The notes under the pieces: generated by a model
Seen by the model: the letters and a program-made list of their open reading frames with translations, nothing else
Databases searched by the model: none
Told to the model about the DNA's origin: nothing
Source of the DNA: Chloroflexota bacterium
GTDB taxonomy: Bacteria; Chloroflexota; Dehalococcoidia; UBA2979
Direction: 5' to 3'
NCBI GenBank assembly: GCA_027593235.1
Contig: JAQCIU010000007.1
Location: 52,983-116,982 of the forward strand
DNA length: 64,000 bases
Position numbers and translations under genes: made by a program
Shown here: one piece after another, positions 30,718 to 43,946 of the stretch
How positions within the stretch are numbered: the stretch's first letter is position 1
Layout of the letters: each line of letters opens with the position of its first letter

Positions 30718-30852
30718 CGCCCCGACACCCCACACCCAGCAGCCTCACCGCGCGGCAGTCGAGGGGTTCGACCACCCGTTTCTCGGGCGGACTCCGATGC
30801 GATCCCAGACCCAATACCTCCCTACTGGAGGCGTTTGGTTCCGGGAGGATTC

Positions 30853-32991
30853 GTGGACCGACTACCGCTGTTCCCGCGCGCAAGCGCGCGTATCGCCCTC
30901 GCCGCCGCGCTTGCCGCGCTCGCGCTGGCCCTCGTGCTCTCCGCGGACGGTCGCACCCAGACCACCAGCGCCGCCACCGCGGTCAGCGGCCGGCTCACCG
31001 TGCCCCGCCCGCAGGGGATGACCGTTGGCTACGCCGGCACCGGCGACCCCGCGCTCTTCGCGCAGGCACAGTCCTTCCAGGTCGCGTCGGTCTCCATGTT
31101 CCACATCCCCTCGCAGACGTGGAGCTCATACGTCCCCGGCGCGCCGGCGTTCGCCAACAGCCTTACCACCCTCAACCTCCGCTCCGACAGCATCGTCTTC
31201 GCGAAGCGAACCGAGTCGACGAAGCTGGTCGCGGCGCCCGTCCCGCTGGCCGGCCCGCCATTCGTCGAGATCATCGATCAGCCACAACGCTTCGAGGTGC
31301 CGCCGGCCAACGGGCTGACGATCGGCGTCAGCGGCACCAACATCCCGGAAGCGCTGATCGCCTCCCAGTTCTTCAACACCTCGACGATGAACGTCTGGAG
31401 CATCAGCCGGCAGCGGTACCTCACGTACATCCCGGGGGCGCCGGCGGCGGTCAACACGCTATCGGCGTCCACGTTGCGTGCGACCGACGTCGTCTGGCTG
31501 AAGGCGCTGGGCGGTGCGACCGGCGGCGTGGTCCTAGAGGACACCCCGTTCATTGCGCGCCTCGTTCCTCCCGGCCAGGCCGGCACGCTGGTCGGCGTCG
31601 GGGCACCGGAGCACGGGAAGCTGATCGAGAACGGCGACGGCAGCGTCACCTACGTCCCAGAGAAGAACTACAGCGGTCCGGACAGCTTCACCTACACCGT
31701 CATGACCCCCAACGGTCCCGAGGTCCGCACGTTCCGTATTGAGGTCACCTCCGAGAACGACGCGCCGATCGCGGTCGACGACGTGGCGGTTGCGTCAGGC
31801 GGCCTCCCCACCGTCATCGCCGTCCTCGACAACGACAAGGATCCCGACAACGACCCGATCAAGATCCTGCGCACGACCCAGCCCGCGCATGGCATCGTCG
31901 CCGTTTCCGGCAACGCCGTGATCTACACACCTGAGCCGAAGTTCACCGGCACCGATGTCTTCGAGTACGAGATCACCGACGGCATCGCCGAACCCGGGAA
32001 CAAGGACTCGATCGCGACCGTCTTCGTCGCTGTCGGTGGGGCCGCCCTCGCTGGTCCGCCGCCCGCCGGCGGCGGTGGTGGCGGCGGTGGTGGCGGCGGT
32101 GGCGGCGGTGGCGTCACCCCACCCCCCGGCGGTGATGTTGGCGAGGGCGGCGTCCCGCCGTTCCTCACCGACGACAGCGCTTCGCTCGAAGTCTGTGACA
32201 CGCCGCCCGTGATCAACGTGCTCGCCAACGACGCGGGTGACGGCGTGACGGTCCTTGTCGTCACCGCCGTATCCACGCCGACGCTCGGTACAGCCGCCAA
32301 CAACGGCGACGGTACCGTCACCTACACCCCGCCCGTCGCCTGCGAGGGCACCGACACATTCACCTACACCGTCCCAGACGGCGACGGCGTGGATCAGACC
32401 GCCACCGTCACGGTTTCGATGGGCACCGCCGCAGGCGGTGGCACAGGCGGCGGCGGTACCAACCAGCTACCGCTGGCCGTCAATGACACCGTCAGCGCGT
32501 TCGCGAACGACCCGGCCGTGATCAGCGTGCTCGCCAACGACAGCGATCCGGACGGTGACCCGCTCACGGTCTCCGCGATCACACAGCCCAGCGGCGGGTC
32601 GGTCGTCAACAACGGCAACGGCACGGTCACCTACACCGCGAACAACTTCGTCGGTCAGACCTCGTTCACGTACACGGCCTCGGACGGCAACGGCGGCGAG
32701 GCGATCGCAACCGTCTCGGTCACCGTCGAGAGCGCTCCGGTCTCTCCGGTTGGGCCGGTGCTCGTCAGTTCCGGCGGGCAGGTCACCATCCAGGTGATCA
32801 CACCCAGCAGCTTCGTCCGGCTGGGCAGCGTGACCAACGGAAGCCACGGCAGCACGACGATGAACGCGGCCGCCGGCACGGTCACCTACAAGTCGCAGGC
32901 CGGGTACATCGGTGATGACTGGATTACCTGGACGCTGATCTTCAACCACGGCGGCACGGCGCAAACGACGCTTCGCCTGAAGATGCAGTAG
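30853..32991 (+). CDS. Secreted surface protein with Ig-like/cadherin-like (Big_9 type) repeats
   Basis: Signal peptide; repeats such as NDAPIAVDD, VLANDSDPDGD, NGDGTVTYTP, DSFTYT; poly-Gly/Pro linker; GGAGG RBS before GTG 30853. Confidence 0.88.
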   Translation: MDRLPLFPRASARIALAAALAALALALVLSADGRTQTTSAATAVSGRLTVPRPQGMTVGYAGTGDPALFAQAQSFQVASVSMFHIPSQTWSSYVPGAPAFANSLTTLNLRSDSIVFAKRTESTKLVAAPVPLAGPPFVEIIDQPQRFEVPPANGLTIGVSGTNIPEALIASQFFNTSTMNVWSISRQRYLTYIPGAPAAVNTLSASTLRATDVVWLKALGGATGGVVLEDTPFIARLVPPGQAGTLVGVGAPEHGKLIENGDGSVTYVPEKNYSGPDSFTYTVMTPNGPEVRTFRIEVTSENDAPIAVDDVAVASGGLPTVIAVLDNDKDPDNDPIKILRTTQPAHGIVAVSGNAVIYTPEPKFTGTDVFEYEITDGIAEPGNKDSIATVFVAVGGAALAGPPPAGGGGGGGGGGGGGGGVTPPPGGDVGEGGVPPFLTDDSASLEVCDTPPVINVLANDAGDGVTVLVVTAVSTPTLGTAANNGDGTVTYTPPVACEGTDTFTYTVPDGDGVDQTATVTVSMGTAAGGGTGGGGTNQLPLAVNDTVSAFANDPAVISVLANDSDPDGDPLTVSAITQPSGGSVVNNGNGTVTYTANNFVGQTSFTYTASDGNGGEAIATVSVTVESAPVSPVGPVLVSSGGQVTIQVITPSSFVRLGSVTNGSHGSTTMNAAAGTVTYKSQAGYIGDDWITWTLIFNHGGTAQTTLRLKMQ
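32068..32112 (+). repeat. In-frame GGY microsatellite encoding poly-Gly
   Basis: About 15 consecutive Gly codons (GGC/GGT). Confidence 0.8.
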
Positions 32992-33000
32992 CGCCGCGGT

Positions 33001-33330
33001 CTACATCCGCTCGGAGCGTTCCAGTCCCAGCACGAACGCGACCGCGCCACCGGTGCGGACGTCCAGCATGTCCGCCTGCTGGCCCGACTCGTCGGCCAGC
33101 GGCAAGGAACTCCGCGATACCGGTTCGGTCATCGCCGGGAAGTGTTCGTGCAGCAGCGCCATCAGATCCGCGACTTGATCATCTTCGACGGCCACGAAGG
33201 CCGTGACGTTGCCACGCCGCAGGAAGCCGCCGCTTGAACCGACCTTCGTCGCGCCAAATTGCGCCTCGGCCAACCGATCGAGGAGTCGGTCTCCGTCGGC
33301 ACCCGGCACGATCACGACACAGAGCTTCAT
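33001..33330 (-). CDS. PII-like cyclic-di-AMP receptor (DarA/PstA family)
   Basis: TKVGSSGGFLRRGNVT and GGAVAFVL motifs. Confidence 0.85.
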   Translation of the reverse strand: MKLCVVIVPGADGDRLLDRLAEAQFGATKVGSSGGFLRRGNVTAFVAVEDDQVADLMALLHEHFPAMTEPVSRSSLPLADESGQQADMLDVRTGGAVAFVLGLERSERM

Positions 33331-33421
33331 CCGCGGTTGCTCCCGCTGCGGCTCATCACCGCCGCCAGACTATCCGACCGAGGCAGGATGCGCCGTCCTC
33401 GGCATCCGGAGCACGCGCGGA

Positions 33422-34534
33422 CTACGCGCGATTCCCCGCGACCGCTTCCAGTACCGACAACACCTCGGAGGCGCGGGCGTCCCAGGTATTGGCCTCCAGC
33501 CACGCCCGGCGCTCGACGCTGTCGACCGCCGGCTCGCCGCCCAGTGCGGCATCCAGTGCGGCCAGCGCCGACGTCGCGTCACCAAACGGCACGACGTGCG
33601 GTGCGAACCACTTCGCCTCGTGGATCGCCGTCGTGAGGATCAGGCGATTCGTCGCCAGGTACTCGCAGAGGCGCAGCGGGAAACGTCGGTCGTTGTGCTC
33701 ATTGATCGTCAGCGGATTCAGCAGCACGTCGCTCGCATTGAGGTAAGACGGCAGATCAGTTCGCGGCTTCGAGCCCAGCCAGTAGACGTTCTCCCGCGCG
33801 AACACCGCATCGATGCGCGCGCGGAGCGCAACCTCGGGCTCGCGGTTCGGACCGATGAAGACGAACGACACTTCCGGCCGCGCCTCCGCCAGCCGTTCGA
33901 TCAGCGCCCAGTCGTACGTCCCGTTGATCATCCCGACGACCGCCACCCGAGGGCGCGCGATCGTCGCCAGATCCAGCGGCACCGGGAGCTGGCCGCGCGC
34001 CAGCTCCGCGAAACGGCCGCTGACGCCGTTCGGCAGCCGTGTCACCGCTTCCGCGCCCGCCGACTCGAACTCCTCGGCCAGCAACTCCGACACCGGGAAT
34101 GACGCCCGCGCTCGTGCCAGCAGGGCGCGCTCCAGCCGCGCCGTGCGCGCCACCGGCCACGCATAGAAGCGGTAGGCATCCGTCGCCACGTAGGCAAGCG
34201 GAGCATCGATCGCGCTTGCGAACGGTTCGAGGTACGGCGAGTCGACCAGCACGAAGTCTGGCCGCCCAAACCTCCGCACCGCCGATCGGTAGGACCGTTC
34301 CAGCCACCAGCGCGAGACCCCGGGGAACCGCCGGAGACCGGGCACGGCCACCACCGTCTGGTGATCCGCGTCCGCGACGTCCGCCCAGTAGAAGCCGCCG
34401 CGATCTTCGCGCTGCTGCTTGAGGTGCCAGAGCGGGCTCACCACCCGAAAGGCGTGCACCTCGACCTGCCGCGACAGCGCGTTGAGCAGCGCCGCGACGC
34501 TCTCCGGGTTCTCGTGATACGCGAACAACCGCAT
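33422..34534 (-). CDS. Glycosyltransferase (GT-B fold)
   Basis: LPNGV, NVYWLGSKP, PLRLCEYLAT, NTWDARA. Confidence 0.85.
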   Translation of the reverse strand: MRLFAYHENPESVAALLNALSRQVEVHAFRVVSPLWHLKQQREDRGGFYWADVADADHQTVVAVPGLRRFPGVSRWWLERSYRSAVRRFGRPDFVLVDSPYLEPFASAIDAPLAYVATDAYRFYAWPVARTARLERALLARARASFPVSELLAEEFESAGAEAVTRLPNGVSGRFAELARGQLPVPLDLATIARPRVAVVGMINGTYDWALIERLAEARPEVSFVFIGPNREPEVALRARIDAVFARENVYWLGSKPRTDLPSYLNASDVLLNPLTINEHNDRRFPLRLCEYLATNRLILTTAIHEAKWFAPHVVPFGDATSALAALDAALGGEPAVDSVERRAWLEANTWDARASEVLSVLEAVAGNRA

Positions 34535-34581
34535 CGTTCCGCTGGTTCCCTGCTCTGCCGCGACGACCGCGTCTGCTCGCG

Positions 34582-35817
34582 TTATCCCCGGAAGTCCCGG
34601 ACCGCGTCCGCATAGGCCTGGACAAGTTGATCGTTCAGCCGCTCGATGTCGAACCGATCCTCCACCAGCGCGCGCCCATGCGCACCCAGGCGGGCCCGCA
34701 GGCCCGGATCGGCCGCGCACTCCGTCAGCCGCGCCCCCAGCGCCGCCACATCTCCCGGCTCCACCAGGTACCCGCTCTCACCGTCGTCGACGCCCTCGGG
34801 GATGCCGCCGATTCGCGTGGTCAGGACCGGCACGCCCATCGCCTGCGCCTCCTGGAGCACGAGGCCCTGCGCTTCCTCAGAGCCGTCCGCTGCGCGGATG
34901 CTGGGCAGCACGAACAGATCGCTCTCCGCGTAGGCCGCGCGCACCTCCGCCTCGGAGGCCGCTCCGGTCAGCGAGACCACGTCCTCCAGGCCGGCCGCCG
35001 CCACCTGTGCGCGTAACTCGCCCTCGAGGGGACCGCCGCCGATGATCCGGTAACGCAGCGATGCCCCCGCAGCGACCGCCTGTGCCACCGCGGCAATCGA
35101 GTCCGCCACACCCTTCTCCGGCACCAGCCGCGCCACGGTCAGCACCCGCATCGGCCCCTCGGCGGCGGGATGCGCCAGCTCTGATTGCGGCGGCAACTCC
35201 ACGCCCATGCGCACGATCCGCAGCCGATCCTCGGGACAGCCAAGCGCCACGGCCTTCTTCGCCAGGAATGCGGAGTTCGAGGTGAACACGTCGCAGTCCG
35301 CAAACAACCGGTCGTAGCCGCGGGCCCCCGGCCCGCCGGGCAGCACGTTGATGCCGTGGCCGTGGAACGTCGTGACGATCGGCGCGTTGAAGCACCCTGC
35401 GGCGCGAAGATCGGTCGCGATCACGCCGTTTGGCCCGAAGTGCGCGTGCACCACGTCGAATTTGCCCGCCCGCGCCCATCCGGTCGCCGCGAAGGGCAGT
35501 CGCAGGTTCAGCACCTCGCGCCCCCGGCGCAGCGGGTTCAGCGTGCGCGCCATCGAGAGCATCCCACGCGGCGGCTCACGACGCGCCGCGCCGAGCACCG
35601 CGCGTACGCGCGCCGGCTTCGAGCGCGGCGGCGCTGGCCGGAACACGGTCCGCTGCAACAGGCCGAACTGTTCAATCCGTTCATGCCGCGCCGGATTCCC
35701 CGAGGGCTCGCCGAAGATCGTCACCTCGTGGCCGCGATCCAGCAGTCCGCAGATCTGGCGAACGATGAACAACTCGGAGATCACCGGGAACTCCGTGACC
35801 AGGAATGCGATGCGCAT
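34582..35817 (-). CDS. Glycosyltransferase family 4 (WcaL-like)
   Basis: FPVISELFI, HAHFGPNG, VARLVPEKG, LQEAQAMGVPV. Confidence 0.92.
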   Translation of the reverse strand: MRIAFLVTEFPVISELFIVRQICGLLDRGHEVTIFGEPSGNPARHERIEQFGLLQRTVFRPAPPRSKPARVRAVLGAARREPPRGMLSMARTLNPLRRGREVLNLRLPFAATGWARAGKFDVVHAHFGPNGVIATDLRAAGCFNAPIVTTFHGHGINVLPGGPGARGYDRLFADCDVFTSNSAFLAKKAVALGCPEDRLRIVRMGVELPPQSELAHPAAEGPMRVLTVARLVPEKGVADSIAAVAQAVAAGASLRYRIIGGGPLEGELRAQVAAAGLEDVVSLTGAASEAEVRAAYAESDLFVLPSIRAADGSEEAQGLVLQEAQAMGVPVLTTRIGGIPEGVDDGESGYLVEPGDVAALGARLTECAADPGLRARLGAHGRALVEDRFDIERLNDQLVQAYADAVRDFRG

Positions 35818-35961
35818 CGGTGCTTGCCTTCACTGCGCGCGGCCGATCCTCGCCGTGCGTTCCGAGACGAGGTGGCCGTCCGCGGACCCCGGCGGGTACG
35901 TCTCAGCTCGCGCGACGTTGCTACTGTAGGAAACCACGGATTCACAAGGACTAAGAGCTTC

Positions 35962-36735
35962 TTGATACGTCGGCTGCTGCGCTCCCTCCGTCCCCGCGCC
36001 GCCCGGTACTTCCGACGGCGCGTCTTTGCACGAGGTATCGACGAGACCGCGCGCACCACCGGGGCGCGCGCACTCATCCTCGCGCCCCACGCGGACGACG
36101 AAGCGATCGGCTTCGGCGCGCTGATCGCCCGCAAGGCCGCCGCCGGTACCGAGGTGCTGATCGTCATCGCGACCGACGGTCGCCACTCCGAGCGTGAAGC
36201 GGAGATCGGCGCCGACGAACTCGCCCGCGTGCGGCACGCCGAAGCCCTCGAGGCCGCCGCCGCCGTCGGCCTCCCACCGACCGCGGTACGCTTCCTGGAC
36301 TTCGAAGACGGCACGCTCGAGCAAAACCGCGCGCCACTCCTCGAAGCGATCCGCGCCATCGCAGCGGAGCTGCGACCGGACGAGATCTTCGCGCCGAACC
36401 CGGACGAGCACCCGGACCACCGCGTGCTCGGACAGGTCGCGCAGGCGGCCTTCGCCACCTCGAACGACGCGCGACTCTACGAGTACCCGGTGCGCTACTG
36501 GGGCCGCGTGCCATGGGTGGTCCCCGCGACGACGAAGCTCGATGCGATCCGGCGGTTGATCCTGGATCCGATCACGGAGTGGCGCCGGCGCCCGGCAATG
36601 CTCGTCGAAACCGGTGAGTTCCTACCGCAGAAGCACGCCGCCCTCGCCGCTTACTCGGGGGAGATGGCCAGCGTCGGCTACTTCGTCTTCCAGTTCGCGG
36701 ACGCGAACTACGAAGCGTTCTTTCCGCTCAACTGA
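35962..36735 (+). CDS. PIG-L family deacetylase
   Basis: APHADDEAIG, TDG, HPDH; start uncertain (35872 or 35962). Confidence 0.85.
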   Translation: MIRRLLRSLRPRAARYFRRRVFARGIDETARTTGARALILAPHADDEAIGFGALIARKAAAGTEVLIVIATDGRHSEREAEIGADELARVRHAEALEAAAAVGLPPTAVRFLDFEDGTLEQNRAPLLEAIRAIAAELRPDEIFAPNPDEHPDHRVLGQVAQAAFATSNDARLYEYPVRYWGRVPWVVPATTKLDAIRRLILDPITEWRRRPAMLVETGEFLPQKHAALAAYSGEMASVGYFVFQFADANYEAFFPLN

Positions 36736-38272: not shown

Positions 38273-38369
38273 TGGCGGGAGTGCGTGGGGGTCGAACCCA
38301 CCCAGGACTACGACGTAGCCCCGCAACGGTTTTGAAGACCGCGCGCAACACCGGTCACGATCCACTCCC
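38273..38369 (-). tRNA. selC: tRNA-Sec (TCA)
   Basis: 97 nt; acceptor GGGAGTG/CACTCCC, anticodon arm GCGGT-CTTCAAA-ACCGT (anticodon TCA), long variable arm, GTGGG-TTCGACC-CCCAC T arm, GCCA end. Confidence 0.95.
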
Positions 38370-38592: not shown

Positions 38593-39270
38593 GTGGCCAC
38601 AGGAAACCAGATACTCGACGCGCTCCCTGGCGAGGAGAGCCAGCGATTGCTCCGTGATTGCACGGAGGTAACCATCGCCTTCGGTGAGGTCATCCAGGCG
38701 TCCGGACAGACACTCACCCATATCTACCTCCCAACGACCGCCGTGATCGCCCTCCTGGCAGTCGCGCCGGGCAGCGGGTCCGTCGCTGCGGCGATCGCCT
38801 CGAAGCAGGGTGCGGCGGGTATCTGCGGCCTGTACGGGCGTGCTGAGTCGCCATGGCAGATGGTGACCCAACTCCCAGGGGGTGCATTCCGCATCCCGGT
38901 TGGGCTGTTCGAGACCCACCTGCAGCGCAGCCCCAGCCTGGCCGCCATCGCAAGACGCAACATGGGATTGTTGATCGGGGCGGTGGCGGAGACTGCGGTT
39001 TGCGGCCGTCTGCACACGTTGGAGCAGCGGTCTGCGCGCTGGTTGACCGCTGTCGATGAACTCGCCGAGAGCCGTCCCTTCCCGGCCACCGGGGAGCTAC
39101 TGGCCCAGGTTCTAGGCGCTCGTCGACCAAGCGTGTCCGCCGTCCTGTCCAACTTCGTGACGCGAGAACTGCTCGCGCGTGAAGATCTCAGGATGCTGCG
39201 TGTGCGTGATCGCGATGCCCTGAACGCGCTCGCATGCGATCGAGGCCGCTTGATGCTCATCTGGCGCTGA
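38593..39270 (+). CDS. Crp/Fnr family transcriptional regulator
   Basis: NQILDALP, HIYLP, CGRLHTLEQRSARWL, C-terminal HTH LAQVLGARRPSVS. Confidence 0.85.
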   Translation: MATGNQILDALPGEESQRLLRDCTEVTIAFGEVIQASGQTLTHIYLPTTAVIALLAVAPGSGSVAAAIASKQGAAGICGLYGRAESPWQMVTQLPGGAFRIPVGLFETHLQRSPSLAAIARRNMGLLIGAVAETAVCGRLHTLEQRSARWLTAVDELAESRPFPATGELLAQVLGARRPSVSAVLSNFVTRELLAREDLRMLRVRDRDALNALACDRGRLMLIWR

Positions 39271-39438: not shown

Positions 39439-39954
39439 GTGACGATCGACCGCCCATCGGAAGAGGACCTCGCGCAGGCCTCGCCCGAGAACATCGCCAA
39501 GATGACGAAGTTCGTGGAGAACTTCGCCAACAAGAGCGGCAGCTATCTCCACCCGCAACGCGAGATCACGGACTTCCTGGTGATCGGCCTCGCCAAGAAC
39601 ATTGACGAAGTCGGCAAGCCACTCTGTCCCTGCATGTTCTTCCAGGACAAGCAGGAGGAGATCGACAAGAAGTTTTGGATCTGCCCCTGCGAGGAGATGC
39701 AGCGCTGGAAGTATTGCCACTGACTACTCTTCTGCGACGAGGAAGGTCTTCCCGTCACCGAACACCTGCCAGAGGACCACGAGGGCCGCGAAGCTTACGG
39801 CCTGCGCGCGGATACGCACCCTGACAAGGGTCGCGCCCTGACGCGCCTCGAGGAAAAACAGGGACGCCGCCTCGAGAAGGGCGTGCGTGCCGACGAAAGC
39901 GAGGCTCCACCACGAGGTGGCGGCGCCACCGACGAGCCGCGCAACGTGATCTAG
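39439..39954 (+). CDS. Ferredoxin:thioredoxin reductase catalytic (beta) subunit, predicted selenoprotein (Sec95 at TGA 39721-39723)
   Basis: CPC(63,65)...CPC(82,84)...CH-TGA-LLF; frame stays open for 76 further sense codons to TAG 39952-39954; SECIS-like hairpin; selC about 1 kb away. Confidence 0.9.
39736..39756 (+). promoter_or_regulatory. Bacterial SECIS-like hairpin
   Basis: GACG-A-GGAA-[GGTC]-TTCC-CGTC beginning 12 nt after the TGA; G-led apical loop with GU. Confidence 0.7.
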
Positions 39955-39978
39955 CGCTCGTCGCTCGATCAGTACGAG

Positions 39979-40007
39979 ACAGGGGCAGCCCGACGGGCTG
40001 CCCCTGT
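39979..40007 (+). terminator. Intrinsic terminator-like hairpin after the full-length FTR frame
   Basis: ACAGGGGCAGCCC-GAC-GGGCTGCCCCTGT followed by TGTTGT. Confidence 0.75.
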
Positions 40008-40032
40008 TGTTGTCTCGGGCACCGTCGCCGCG

Positions 40033-41076
40033 TCAGGCCCCGTCGGGCCGGCTCCCCAGGATCAGCCGATCGGCGATCTCCCGCCGCCATCGCTCGTCCG
40101 CGAACCGGCGGAGGTGCCGGTCTGTCTCTTCGAGGAACGGCGCAACACGCTCGTTGCCTTCCAGGAAGTACGCCGCGTACACCCAGGTCCCGTGTAGCCG
40201 CGTCTGCCACCACAGCTCGATGCCCTCGCGGCACTCCTCCTCGCTCAGCGTGACGTGCCGGCGGAAGCCTCGGAGGTAATGCGCCAGCAGATCGGTCTCC
40301 AACACCTGCGAGAAGCTGAGGGCGCGGACCAGCTCCCAGATCCGCGCCGCAGCCCGCGTCAGCTCCCAGTCCACCACCGCTACGACCGCGTCCTCGGCGC
40401 CTAGCAGCACCTGCTGATCGTGAAAGTCGCCATGCAAGAGCTGACACGGCAGCTCGCCGATCGAGTCAATCGGCCGCGCCGCGCCGTTCTCCAGTAGCTC
40501 GCGCTGGAACCGCAATGCCTCCAGCACCGCCCGAGGCACACGAGGCGTGCGATCCGCCGAGGCGCGCGCCTCCACCTCGGCCAGCACCGCCAGCGAGCGC
40601 GCGGTGTTCCACGCGATCTCGCCGCTCAGCGTCGCCCAGTTCGCGCCCGGCGAACCCGGGTGCTCGGCCAGCGCCTGCTGCGTCCGCCCATGTATCGTGC
40701 CGATCGATTCCGCCTCGCTCGCCGTGATCGCGCCGCGGACGGGCATGCGACCGAGGACCCACGGGAACAACGACCAGCGCTCCGCACCGACCTCGATCAC
40801 CGTCTCGCCGCCGGCGAGCGATCGAGGTGCAATCGCCGGGATTCCACGATCGGCGACCCAGCGCGTGATCGCGTGCTCGTGGCGGATCCGCTCGGCCGGC
40901 AGCTCTGGCCGGTAGCAGCGCGCGAAGACGGCGCCGCCCTCGATTGGCACGCGGAAATTGCGGTTCAGCGTGCCGGCGCTTACCCGCTCGGCTGGTCCCG
41001 CCGCGCGCAACCCGTGCGCGGTCAGCACCACCTCGAGGGCCGCGCGCTCGGACTCGGACGGCTCGGTCGACTGCAT
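40033..41076 (-). CDS. Phosphotransferase (APH / type II homoserine kinase-like)
   Basis: GTLNRNF, LLHGDFHDQQVL, VVDWE. Confidence 0.85.
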   Translation of the reverse strand: MQSTEPSESERAALEVVLTAHGLRAAGPAERVSAGTLNRNFRVPIEGGAVFARCYRPELPAERIRHEHAITRWVADRGIPAIAPRSLAGGETVIEVGAERWSLFPWVLGRMPVRGAITASEAESIGTIHGRTQQALAEHPGSPGANWATLSGEIAWNTARSLAVLAEVEARASADRTPRVPRAVLEALRFQRELLENGAARPIDSIGELPCQLLHGDFHDQQVLLGAEDAVVAVVDWELTRAAARIWELVRALSFSQVLETDLLAHYLRGFRRHVTLSEEECREGIELWWQTRLHGTWVYAAYFLEGNERVAPFLEETDRHLRRFADERWRREIADRLILGSRPDGA

Positions 41077-41129
41077 CGCGCTCCCTCGTCGACGAGCGTA
41101 GGCGCGGCGCGGGCTAGCGGGCACACGCA

Positions 41130-41159
41130 AGAAGGGCTGCCCTCGCGGGCAGCCCTTCT
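41130..41159 (-). terminator. Terminator hairpin of trxA
   Basis: AGAAGGGCTGCCC/GGGCAGCCCTTCT stem, GCGA loop on the minus strand. Confidence 0.75.
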
Positions 41160-41184: not shown

Positions 41185-41514
41185 TTACGCGACGACTACC
41201 TCGTCCAGGTGCTTCGCCAGGTCGCTCTTCGGGCGGAACCCGACGACCTGACCAACCGCCTCGCCACCCTTGAAGATGAGCAGGGTCGGGATCGAACGGA
41301 TCCCGTACTTGCCGGCGACCACCGGGTTCTCGTCCGTGTTCAGCTTCACGAACTTCACCTTGCCGTCGTAGTCGTCAGAAAGCTCCTCGACGACCGGCGC
41401 GACCATGCGACACGGGCCGCACCACGGTGCCCAGAAATCGACCAGTACTGGCAGGTCTGACTGCAGCACGTCGGCGTCGAAGGTGCTGTCGCTCGTATCA
41501 GTTGGGTGTGCCAT
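41185..41514 (-). CDS. trxA: Thioredoxin
   Basis: [16 protein letters not shown]. Confidence 0.97.
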
Positions 41515-42087: not shown

Positions 42088-43143
42088 CTAGTCCGCGACT
42101 ACCGTCGGCTCCATCGCCGCGACCACATCCGCATCGGTCTCCAGCGCCTCGTGGTCGGCGCTGATCGCCGCCCGCACCTGATCCAGCACCCCGAGGCGAT
42201 CGGCCTCGTCCGCCGCGCGGATCGCGTTGGCGATCGCCTCCGCGTCGCTGCGGCCGTGGCCGATGAAGACCTTGCCGTTCACCCCCAGCAGCGGCACCGC
42301 GCCGTAGCGACGGTAGTCCAGCCGATCGCGTACCTCGCGCAGCGACGGGCGCAGCAACGCGCCACCGATCCGCCCGCGCAGCGAACGGCCCGCTTCGCGC
42401 CGCATCGCCTCGAACATCATCTGGACGGTGCCTTCCATCAGCTTCAGGGTGGTGTTCCCGGTGAAACCGTCGGTCACGATCACCTGGTACTCGCCCGTGC
42501 TGACGTCTCGCCCCTCCATGTTCCCGACGAAGTTGATCTGCGGCACCGCGCGCAGCAGCGCGTGCGCCTCCACGATCAACGAGGAGCCTTTCGACGCCTC
42601 CTCGCCGATCGACAGCAGACCGACGCGCGGGTGCTCGTAGCCGTACATCGCCCGCATGTAGGCGGAGCCCATCTCGCCGAACTGGCGCAGGTGGTTCGGG
42701 CGCGCCTCGGCGTTCGCGCCGCCGTCGATCAGCAGCGTCGGTCCGCCCGGCGTCGGCAGCATCACCGCAAGGCCGGGCCGCTCTACGCCGGGGATCCGGC
42801 CGAGCGCGAGTAACGCGCCCGCCAGCATCGCGCCGGTGTTGCCCATCGACACGAATGCCTGCGCCTCGCCGCTCTTCACCAGCTCCATGCCGACCCAGAT
42901 CGAAGAGTCGCGACGGCGGCGCACCTCGCGCGCCACCTGCTCGCCCATCCCAATCGCGTCGGCCGCGTGCGCAATCCGCAACGTCGAGGGCGTTCCGCCC
43001 TGACTCTCGATCTCCCGTCGCAGCACCGGCTCATCGCCGACCAGCAGCACCTGCAGTCCGCCGGTTGCCGCCGCAATCGCGCCGGCCACCGTCGCCGGTG
43101 GCCCCAGATCGCCACCCATCCCATCGAGTGCGATCACCGTCAC
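42088..43143 (-). CDS. plsX: Phosphate acyltransferase PlsX
   Basis: IALDGMGGD, GNTGA, IGEEASKG, TDGFTGN, LLGVNG, HGRS. Confidence 0.95.
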   Translation of the reverse strand: MTVIALDGMGGDLGPPATVAGAIAAATGGLQVLLVGDEPVLRREIESQGGTPSTLRIAHAADAIGMGEQVAREVRRRRDSSIWVGMELVKSGEAQAFVSMGNTGAMLAGALLALGRIPGVERPGLAVMLPTPGGPTLLIDGGANAEARPNHLRQFGEMGSAYMRAMYGYEHPRVGLLSIGEEASKGSSLIVEAHALLRAVPQINFVGNMEGRDVSTGEYQVIVTDGFTGNTTLKLMEGTVQMMFEAMRREAGRSLRGRIGGALLRPSLREVRDRLDYRRYGAVPLLGVNGKVFIGHGRSDAEAIANAIRAADEADRLGVLDQVRAAISADHEALETDADVVAAMEPTVVAD

Positions 43144-43946
43144 GCGTCGTCCTCCGAGCGGGTGAACGAGACGACCAGACGCTGCGCCCCGTCGTCGAAT
43201 GGCGTCATCTCGTAGTCGCCCCACGCGGAGGACAGCTCCAGGCCGGCCAGCCTCCCGGCCAGCTCCAGTTCGCCCAGCGTGATCGTCCGCAGGTCGAATT
43301 GCGCGGTCGTCCGCCGCAGCGTGCCATCCACACCCTGCACATCGAAGTGCCATGTCACCGCGCGCGTCGAGTCGGCCGGGTAGGACTCCACGCTGACCAG
43401 CTTGGAGACCAGCGTCGCCGGCCCATCCGCTTCCGCGTGCCACTCCCGGGTCCAGTGTTCAATCAACGGCTGCGGACCCGGCGTGAAGTCGTCTGGCAAC
43501 GGCGCCTCCACATCCACCACCGCAAGCCCGTCATCGGACAGGTGCCGCGCGATCGATTCAAACGCCGCCACCAGGTCGTCCAGTTCAGTCATGTGCTGCA
43601 GGCCACCCAGCGCCACGATCACCAGCCCGAACTCTTGCCCGGCGTCGTATGTCCGCAGATCCGCCTCGACCCACGTCGGCGCCGGCGAAACGGATCGCGC
43701 GCGGGCGATCACCAGCATCGCCTCGCTGATATCGACGCCAACCACCTCGATGCCCTCGGCCGCCAGCGCCAGCGCAACACGACCGGTCCCGCAGCCCAGC
43801 TCCAGCACGGGGCCATCGGCGCGCGTCGCCAACTCGCGGTAAAGCGTCACGTCGTCCTCGTAGCCCTCGAGGTCGAGGTCATAGAACGGCGCGACGGAAG
43901 CGAAGGGATCGTCGGAGGATGAGGTGGCGTGCACCGGGAGATTCAC
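43140..43946 (-). CDS. Class I SAM-dependent methyltransferase
   Basis: VLELGCGTGRV, GVDISEAML. Confidence 0.9.
   Translation of the reverse strand: MNLPVHATSSSDDPFASVAPFYDLDLEGYEDDVTLYRELATRADGPVLELGCGTGRVALALAAEGIEVVGVDISEAMLVIARARSVSPAPTWVEADLRTYDAGQEFGLVIVALGGLQHMTELDDLVAAFESIARHLSDDGLAVVDVEAPLPDDFTPGPQPLIEHWTREWHAEADGPATLVSKLVSVESYPADSTRAVTWHFDVQGVDGTLRRTTAQFDLRTITLGELELAGRLAGLELSSAWGDYEMTPFDDGAQRLVVSFTRSEDDA

Follow-up and report, generated by a model that had tools for sequence, protein, structure and literature searches.

The stretch of DNA analysed here, 64,000 nucleotides of contig JAQCIU010000007.1 from a Chloroflexota bacterium of the class Dehalococcoidia (hereafter the window), contains a gene that raises a simple question: does the TGA triplet inside a frame resembling the catalytic subunit of ferredoxin:thioredoxin reductase (FTR) end a protein of 94 residues, or is it read as selenocysteine (Sec) in a protein of 171 residues? 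The initial annotation of the locus, made from the letters alone, had proposed a hidden selenoprotein. Our analysis bears this out, and with a probability of roughly 0.9 we read the gene as encoding a single-subunit iron-sulfur (Fe-S) disulfide reductase homologous to the FTR catalytic subunit, with UGA-95 decoded as Sec. The features of the gene, including a putative selenocysteine insertion sequence (SECIS), are the following.

39439..39954, plus strand: predicted FTR-catalytic-subunit-like selenoprotein gene, with a GTG start, a TAG stop at 39952-39954 and 171 residues when the TGA is read through
39625..39720, plus strand: cluster and redox motifs C63-P-C65, C82-P-C84 and C93-H94, invariant in 80 aligned sequences
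39721..39723, plus strand: in-frame TGA, read as Sec (U95), corresponding to position 87 of the solved FTR catalytic chain
39733..39735, plus strand: codon of Cys99 (TGC), four residues past the Sec (U-L-L-F-C)
39736..39756, plus strand: putative SECIS hairpin GACG-A-GGAA[GGUC]UUCC-CGUC, with its core at 39741-39752, its loop at 39745-39748 and a folding energy of -9.5 kcal/mol
39736..39951, plus strand: C-terminal extension past the classical FTR core, conserved over residues ~100-150 and variable over 151-171

The protein belongs to the FTR family, as had been assigned initially. Residues 19-103 match the Pfam family PF02943 (FeThRed_B) with 82.1 bits against a gathering cut-off of 22 (E 3.4e-23), and the gene at 39439..39954 is the one copy of this family found in its own genome. 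The family pattern CPC-x16-CPC-x8-CHC is present with U95 in place of the sixth Cys, and orthologues share the start M/V-T-I-D/E-x-P-S with the gene. Searched by sequence against solved structures, the protein matched FTR catalytic chains of plants and cyanobacteria at E values of about 1e-21. With phmmer, residues 17-100 of the query were aligned to residues 9-92 of 1dj7_A with no gaps, and because of this ungapped alignment residues 63/65/82/84/93/95 can be equated with positions 55/57/74/76/85/87 of that chain. The alignment with 7bzk_A likewise sets U95 on position 87, so that the Sec falls on the last Cys of the CHC motif, where it had been placed from the start. A second Pfam domain was found nowhere in the 171 residues, even at E values up to 1.

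The fold points the same way. An AlphaFold model was computed from an alignment of 80 sequences (the window protein and 79 full-length Cys-containing relatives), with Cys in the place of Sec and without the cluster. Its mean predicted local distance difference test score (pLDDT) was 87.0, with block means of 87-98 for residues 1-140, 80 for residues 141-150 and 46-50 beyond. The core of the model superposed on FTR catalytic chains at 1.0-1.1 Å over 83-89 columns, with target-normalised template-modelling (TM) scores of 0.75-0.78 (Foldseek, core-only alignments). Foldseek returned 37 matches at E ≤10 and 11 at E ≤0.001, the latter being ten FTR catalytic chains and a ferredoxin:disulfide reductase (FDR) from Methanosarcina, 4tpu; the matches 7bzk_A, 1dj7_A, 2puk_A and others had E values of 1e-7 to 5e-6, and the glutaredoxin-FDR fusion of Desulfotalea, 7pwe, came next with an E value of 1.7e-3.

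The frame holds a single in-frame TGA, at residue 95, and then runs on as LLFCDEEGLPVTEHLPEDHEGRE... to the TAG. Standard annotation had been expected to truncate such a gene, and it does: the NCBI, JGI/IMG, ENA and Logan gene calls of close relatives (the cluster of P0054) give proteins of 94 residues, and one partial cluster member of 79 residues is misnamed ferredoxin--nitrite reductase. Relatives were collected in two ways. A read-through search of 61 genomes (the genome itself and 60 relatives) gave a match in 39, within its own family in 31 of the 36 other genomes, and a scan of one genome per species confirmed 594 relatives; the best 80 were retained, and these all come from Dehalococcoidia, Chloroflexota or related metagenome-assembled genomes (MAGs). 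From both searches, whose sets overlap in genomes, 110 related loci were pooled; 105 parsed rows represent 93 distinct proteins, 84 with Sec and 9 with Cys.

Codon 95 is TGA in 100 of the 110 related Dehalococcoidia and Chloroflexota loci and TGC in the other 10. The initial annotation had suggested examining whether homology ends at the TGA; it continues. In the 80-sequence alignment 14 positions after residue 95 are invariant, namely L97 and F98 and, within the extension, P105, T107, E108, L110, P111, H114, E115, G116, G121, D125, P128 and G131, and conservation of the protein reaches about 55 residues beyond the TGA. Over the 63 nt that follow it, variable sites among the 84 unique Sec forms number 11 at the 21 first codon positions, 7 at the 21 second and 20 at the 21 third, and since the variation concentrates at third positions, we take the frame downstream of the TGA to be translated. 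Terminal TGA stops occur in 27 of 95 Sec orthologues of the gene, and the triplet therefore still acts as a stop in these organisms. TGC or TGT in sequencing reads had also been named as something to look for, and neither occurred in contigs of other runs; in four public runs, no contig was reported with any other letter at 39721-39723. The contigs that bridge the codon came from run X1 (possibly the source sample), run X4 (another study, 16 differences) and run X20 (an RNA library, a relative with 14 differences in 234 nt). The X20 contig spans the TGA, but an RNA library may hold DNA, hence it is no proof of transcription. Judged from these sequences, the TGA is neither an assembly error nor the product of a changed genetic code.

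A hairpin with a GGUC loop had been noted 12 nt past the TGA. It is present at 39736-39756, with its onset at that distance and its loop 21 nt past the TGA, and it is conserved among the TGA forms. Criteria of the bSECISearch type ask for a hairpin shortly after the UGA with a G in the apical loop; this hairpin has both the position and the G. Its 12-nt core, GGAAGGTCTTCC, is identical in 98 of 100 TGA loci, absent from all 10 TGC loci and found once in the 3.39-Mb genome. In 83 of the 84 unique Sec forms the core holds the codons GAA-GGT-CTT, and among the 9 unique Cys forms the same three places show four, three and four codons, respectively. Among 29 orthologues 89.7% of the stem cells pair, a share that falls to 29.9-62.5% once the 3' side of the stem is shifted by 1-3 columns. 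At stem pair 18-34, 12 distinct sequences have U-A and 10 have C-G, and a one-sided change was seen in none. Natural strain variation at the hairpin was also observed: C39738T and G39754A, a compensatory stem pair, occur together in single metagenome contigs (runs X1 and X3, two studies). The TGA loci L037 and L069 are without the core and carry a different local hairpin, GAUGG[CGUGC]CCAUC, which, as read from the sequence, looks like a replacement SECIS.

The genome (3.39 Mb, 89.66% complete) also has the selenocysteine machinery. Absence of selA and selB had been put forward as a finding that would speak against a selenoprotein, but selA (544.2 bits), selB (299.7 bits) and selD (359.3 bits) are all present, each above its curated cut-off. 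The tRNA-Sec gene, placed about 1 kb upstream in the initial annotation, was found by both ARAGORN and Rfam (RF01852, 72.7 bits against a gathering cut-off of 47):

38273..38369, minus strand: tRNA-Sec (selC)

It is divergent from the FTR-like gene and lies 1,070 nt upstream of its start. Among the 58 related loci scanned, 11 have a tRNA-Sec within 4 kb upstream on the opposite strand, and in L043, L058, L061 and L106 it ends ~90-220 nt before the start of the match. The selD gene (C16:112734-113672, locus L011) itself carries an in-frame TGA, in the context ...SCAGUAGK.... The loop of the hairpin downstream of it differs from that of the FTR-like gene, and we therefore claim no loop motif common to the selenoprotein genes of this genome.

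That Sec-containing FTR-like proteins had been predicted before was correctly supposed at the outset. Zhang & Gladyshev 2008 described homologues of the FTR catalytic subunit as a new selenoprotein family in ocean metagenomes of the Global Ocean Sampling (GOS) (PMC2398784). The two sequences of that paper have CPU as first motif and are without a long extension; the last motif is CIU in the complete read, and the other read stops short of it. In their tables, two reviews give the FTR selenoprotein family as CxU (PMC9312934, PMC13188914). The NCBIfam model of such proteins, NF041072 ('FtrB family double-selenoprotein'), gave 49 bits for the window protein against a curated cut-off of 160, and where that type has its first Sec, in the first motif, all 105 parsed loci have Cys. 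Like the NF041072 or GOS type, the window protein is an FTR-catalytic-subunit homologue and a predicted bacterial selenoprotein with Sec at the end of the third motif (CxU). That type, however, has two Sec (CPU...CIU), one at each redox-active position, and lacks both the His of the last motif and a long conserved extension, whereas the window protein keeps CPC, has CHU with one Sec and bears a conserved extension of ~55 residues. Because of the 49 bits against 160 and the retained CPC...CPC...CHU pattern, we assign it to a separate, single-Sec clade; the protein is a single-Sec variant of a selenoprotein type predicted since 2008. No description of this clade turned up in the literature on FTR selenoproteins or, judged by title and start of abstract, on selenoproteins of Chloroflexi and Dehalococcoidia.

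A quick maximum-likelihood tree was calculated from 202 rows (84 Sec, 118 Cys), leaving out truncated gene calls, proteins of <130 residues and proteins without the motif; it is unrooted, so that gain and loss of Sec are not distinguishable on it. The window protein falls into a supported set of 90 rows, 83 with Sec and 7 with Cys (Shimodaira-Hasegawa-like approximate likelihood ratio test, SH-aLRT, 99). Sec and Cys were exchanged at least 4 times on the tree, with 2 of the changes forced by supported branches. A double-Sec FtrB (CPU...CIU) is encoded at locus L124 (G056:C1:1338700-1339800, minus strand) of another genome in this class, and both kinds of Sec-FTR thus occur here. More distant FTR-like matches (50-58% identity) in G030:C1, G051:C1 and G025:C29 have an in-frame TAG within open frames of 324-787 residues; they may represent gene fusions, neighbouring genes or disrupted copies.

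The plant and cyanobacterial FTR catalytic subunits (1dj7, 2puk, 7bzk) share the pattern and spacing of the six motif residues with the window protein at 33-39% identity; the latter differs in having Sec for Cys at position 87 and an additional conserved C-terminal extension. It also differs from the classical heterodimeric FTR of oxygenic phototrophs in its host, a Chloroflexota MAG of non-phototrophic type in which the variable subunit was not found. Much closer are Cys-containing FTR-like proteins of Dehalococcoidia and Chloroflexota (P0002, P0019, P0043), with 49-69% identity over the full length including the extension; in contrast to the window protein, they have CHC instead of CHU and mostly Val at the position of Cys99, and the hairpin core is present in 0 of their 10 loci.

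In the model, the extension has pLDDT values of 94, 93, 95 and 94 for the 10-residue blocks from 101 to 140 and is mostly coil, with short helices at 115-120 and 133-141. None of the solved structures among the Foldseek matches has a counterpart to it, and it is equally present in Cys-containing relatives and Sec forms. A search for the variable subunit (PF02941) found no gene in the 89.66% complete genome, and the control search found the one of Synechococcus elongatus. In oxygenic phototrophs, to which the variable subunit is reported to be exclusive in the relevant passage of PMC9025218, it may protect the cluster. The replacement of this subunit by the extension, considered in the initial annotation, is not established; a protective part of that kind, or one in dimerisation, is conceivable. 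Within the Sec forms a further residue stands out: the position of Cys99 is Cys, encoded by either TGC or TGT, in 80 of 84 unique Sec forms versus 5 of 118 Cys forms. Val prevails among Cys forms, in 8 of 9 unique loci and 103 of 110 database proteins, and four of the five that do have Cys there read CHC-M-L-F-C. The association of Cys99 with Sec comprises only 2 independent contrasts on supported branches and is not separable from shared ancestry; Cys99 appears to be a clade-specific feature, new here.

The surroundings of the gene are made up as follows.

38593..39270, plus strand: ORF (open reading frame) of a Crp-type helix-turn-helix regulator, between selC and the FTR-like gene (PF13545, E 4.8e-9)
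39974..40016, no strand assigned: hairpin between the convergent FTR-like and APH-family genes, likely a terminator (-39.8 kcal/mol)
40033..41130, minus strand: APH-family phosphotransferase gene, between the FTR-like and thioredoxin genes (PF01636, E 1.2e-23)
41185..41514, minus strand: thioredoxin (WCGPC), candidate substrate (PF00085, E 6e-34)

The arrangement of selC (minus), FTR-like gene (plus) and thioredoxin gene (minus) is recurrent and is new here. Of 77 related loci, 22 have a thioredoxin orthologue within the flank of up to 4 kb that was fetched around the FTR-like gene, and in 16 of the 77 it follows that gene immediately, in convergent orientation and across a gap of 9-196 nt. 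These orthologues were identified by direct BLAST; single-linkage clustering of stop-to-stop ORFs was dropped, as it had chained unrelated ORFs. The Crp-type ORF and the APH-family gene had counterparts in 0 of the 77 loci at E 1e-10. Behind the TAG a terminator had been proposed, and the fold of 39955-40024 agrees with this: a hairpin of -39.8 kcal/mol, a stability reached by 0 of 200 shuffles (z = -4.29), is followed by the U-rich run UGUUGUUGU. The hairpin was not flagged behind the FTR-like stop codon by a consensus terminator scan. The palindrome at 39980-40006 is unique in the window.

Two further genes adjoin the thioredoxin gene: one for a CsoR-type metal-sensitive repressor (PF02583; 41701-42042, plus strand), with ORF counterparts in 17 of 77 related loci, and plsX (42088-43443, minus strand), with ORF counterparts in 21 of the 77. 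Elsewhere in the window, at 30835-36735, the gene of a 718-residue protein built from bacterial Ig/cadherin-like repeats precedes two genes for GT4 glycosyltransferases and one for a PIG-L deacetylase, a group that looks like a cell-surface glycan cluster.

How such a protein might work can be proposed from its relatives. In FTR, Cys57 is said to be the exposed nucleophile and Cys87 the residue that interacts with the cluster, reportedly in the work of Dai et al. 2007. By homology with FTR, Cys63, Cys82, Cys84 and Cys93 would hold a [4Fe-4S] cluster, and Cys65 and Sec95 would be the redox-active pair, forming a selenenylsulfide instead of a disulfide. SelB-dependent recoding of UGA-95 to Sec would be steered by the GGUC-loop hairpin within the coding sequence. 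As Cys is kept at position 57 and Sec stands at 87, the resting state would be the Cys65-Sec95 selenenylsulfide and the intermediate an Fe-bound selenolate. The Se-S bond would be opened by one electron from reduced ferredoxin; the Sec95 selenolate would then bind a cluster iron transiently, as its fifth ligand, and the Cys65 thiolate would attack the disulfide of thioredoxin, the likely target being the WCGPC thioredoxin encoded nearby at 41185-41514. A second electron would release Sec95, which would resolve the mixed disulfide. The cycle of FTR itself, as outlined in PMC3838966 with reference to Dai et al. 2007, has an electron from ferredoxin open the disulfide, one sulfur attack thioredoxin and the other become the fifth iron ligand, and a second electron bring about resolution. 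A Se-S centre coupled to an Fe-S cluster, as suggested in the initial annotation, is what the analogy with FTR would predict. We also put forward, tentatively and with more doubt than confidence, that Sec95 may be buried and face the cluster instead of standing at the surface nucleophile, that the cycle may run via a transient Fe-Se bond between Sec95 and the [4Fe-4S] cluster, that Cys99, one helical turn away, could be an alternative selenenylsulfide partner that protects or gates Sec95, and that the selC/FTR/thioredoxin neighbourhood may mark the enzyme as the selenoprotein anchoring the use of Sec in this Dehalococcoidia lineage.

Other explanations of the locus have to be considered. If the TGA were a true stop, the gene would yield a 94-residue fragment and the frame downstream would be a decaying remnant or a separate ORF. 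The 94-residue public gene calls of close relatives fit this, as does the TGA that ends 27 of 95 orthologues, but a product of that size would be one short of the six active-site residues; 80 sequences show protein-level conservation of the frame beyond the TGA, which varies mostly at third codon positions; some relatives have TGC where this gene has TGA; only TGA forms possess the conserved hairpin; and the Sec machinery is complete. We therefore consider a true stop highly improbable. The same can be said of read-through without Sec, for example with Cys or Trp inserted by near-cognate decoding or under a changed code. Nothing specific speaks for it, beyond the fact that the inserted residue is not readable from sequence data alone, and it sits badly with a gene that in 27 of 95 orthologues ends in TGA, with a TGA-specific hairpin at the spacing expected of a bacterial SECIS, and with the presence of selA, selB, selD and a tRNA-Sec that stands beside the gene in 11 of 58 loci; we give it hardly any credence. 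The gene is almost certainly a genuine selenoprotein gene, with Sec predicted at residue 95.

A genuine selenoprotein need not be a thioredoxin reductase, and an enzyme resembling the archaeal and bacterial FDRs, with another disulfide substrate or an atypical thioredoxin-fold protein as partner and possibly another electron donor, would account for several observations. The genome has its own NADPH thioredoxin reductase, a thioredoxin gene in the vicinity, convergent, is limited to 22 of 77 loci, and the conserved extension of ~55 residues is without counterpart in solved FTRs. The FDRs of M. acetivorans (4tpu) and D. psychrophila (the glutaredoxin-FDR 7pwe) are, like the window protein, single-polypeptide Fe-S disulfide reductases resembling the FTR catalytic subunit and working with no variable subunit. 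They are, however, more distant from it (E 3.1e-8 and 1.6e-3 by sequence, TM 0.39-0.40) and have rubredoxin or glutaredoxin domains of their own, the rubredoxin-type domain of the M. acetivorans enzyme being C-terminal, in contrast to the window protein with its single Pfam domain. The plant and cyanobacterial FTR chains are much closer (E ~1e-21, TM 0.77) than 4tpu (E 3.1e-8, TM 0.39) or 7pwe, and the neighbouring thioredoxin has a canonical WCGPC site. We regard an FDR-like enzyme as unlikely, though it is to be taken seriously.

Several points weigh against a Sec-containing enzyme of the FTR type, or qualify its evidence. According to the passage of PMC6262447 on this group, relatives of the FTR catalytic subunit in non-phototrophs include FDRs that reduce non-canonical thioredoxins. 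By itself the hairpin does not stand out (z = -1.51; 21 of 200 shuffles fold equally well), and the fold of the 60 nt after the TGA resembles that of shuffles (z = -0.41); as single-sequence folding is like that of shuffles, the case for the hairpin rests on the comparison with relatives. A search of Rfam at E values up to 1 gave no SECIS family, only the tRNA-Sec and two weak chance matches. RNAalifold, applied to 29 orthologues, favoured another, long-range structure with 0 compensatory pairs, which was set aside because the local hairpin shows covariation. The related loci share ancestry and the tree needs as few as 4 changes between Sec and Cys, so that the loci should not be counted as independent events. 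The thioredoxin gene is convergent and not co-oriented, and in the window the APH-family gene intervenes. A canonical NADPH thioredoxin reductase is encoded in the genome (359.3 bits against 343.45), and because of its presence the FTR-like enzyme is not the sole possible reductant of thioredoxin and would rather provide a second, ferredoxin-linked route. We infer cluster binding, the electron donor, the substrate and the incorporation of selenium from sequence. Position 87 we take to be the cluster-ligating residue, as reportedly found by Dai et al. 2007; the account of the cycle in PMC3838966 gives no residue numbers.

With the Sec-containing FTR homologue as the preferred reading, the near-invariant hairpin core is a new diagnostic marker and offers a simple means to find such genes and to correct them. 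As a widespread enzyme is stored as a fragment, redox metabolism and selenium use are likely to be under-counted in the uncultured, abundant Dehalococcoidia and Chloroflexota. The enzyme would be a natural case of selenium located beside, and transiently bound to, an Fe-S cluster, in a protein that is small and single-subunit and has natural Cys counterparts for comparison. Although this kind of system is already known, the Fe-Se intermediate would make an attractive and testable question.

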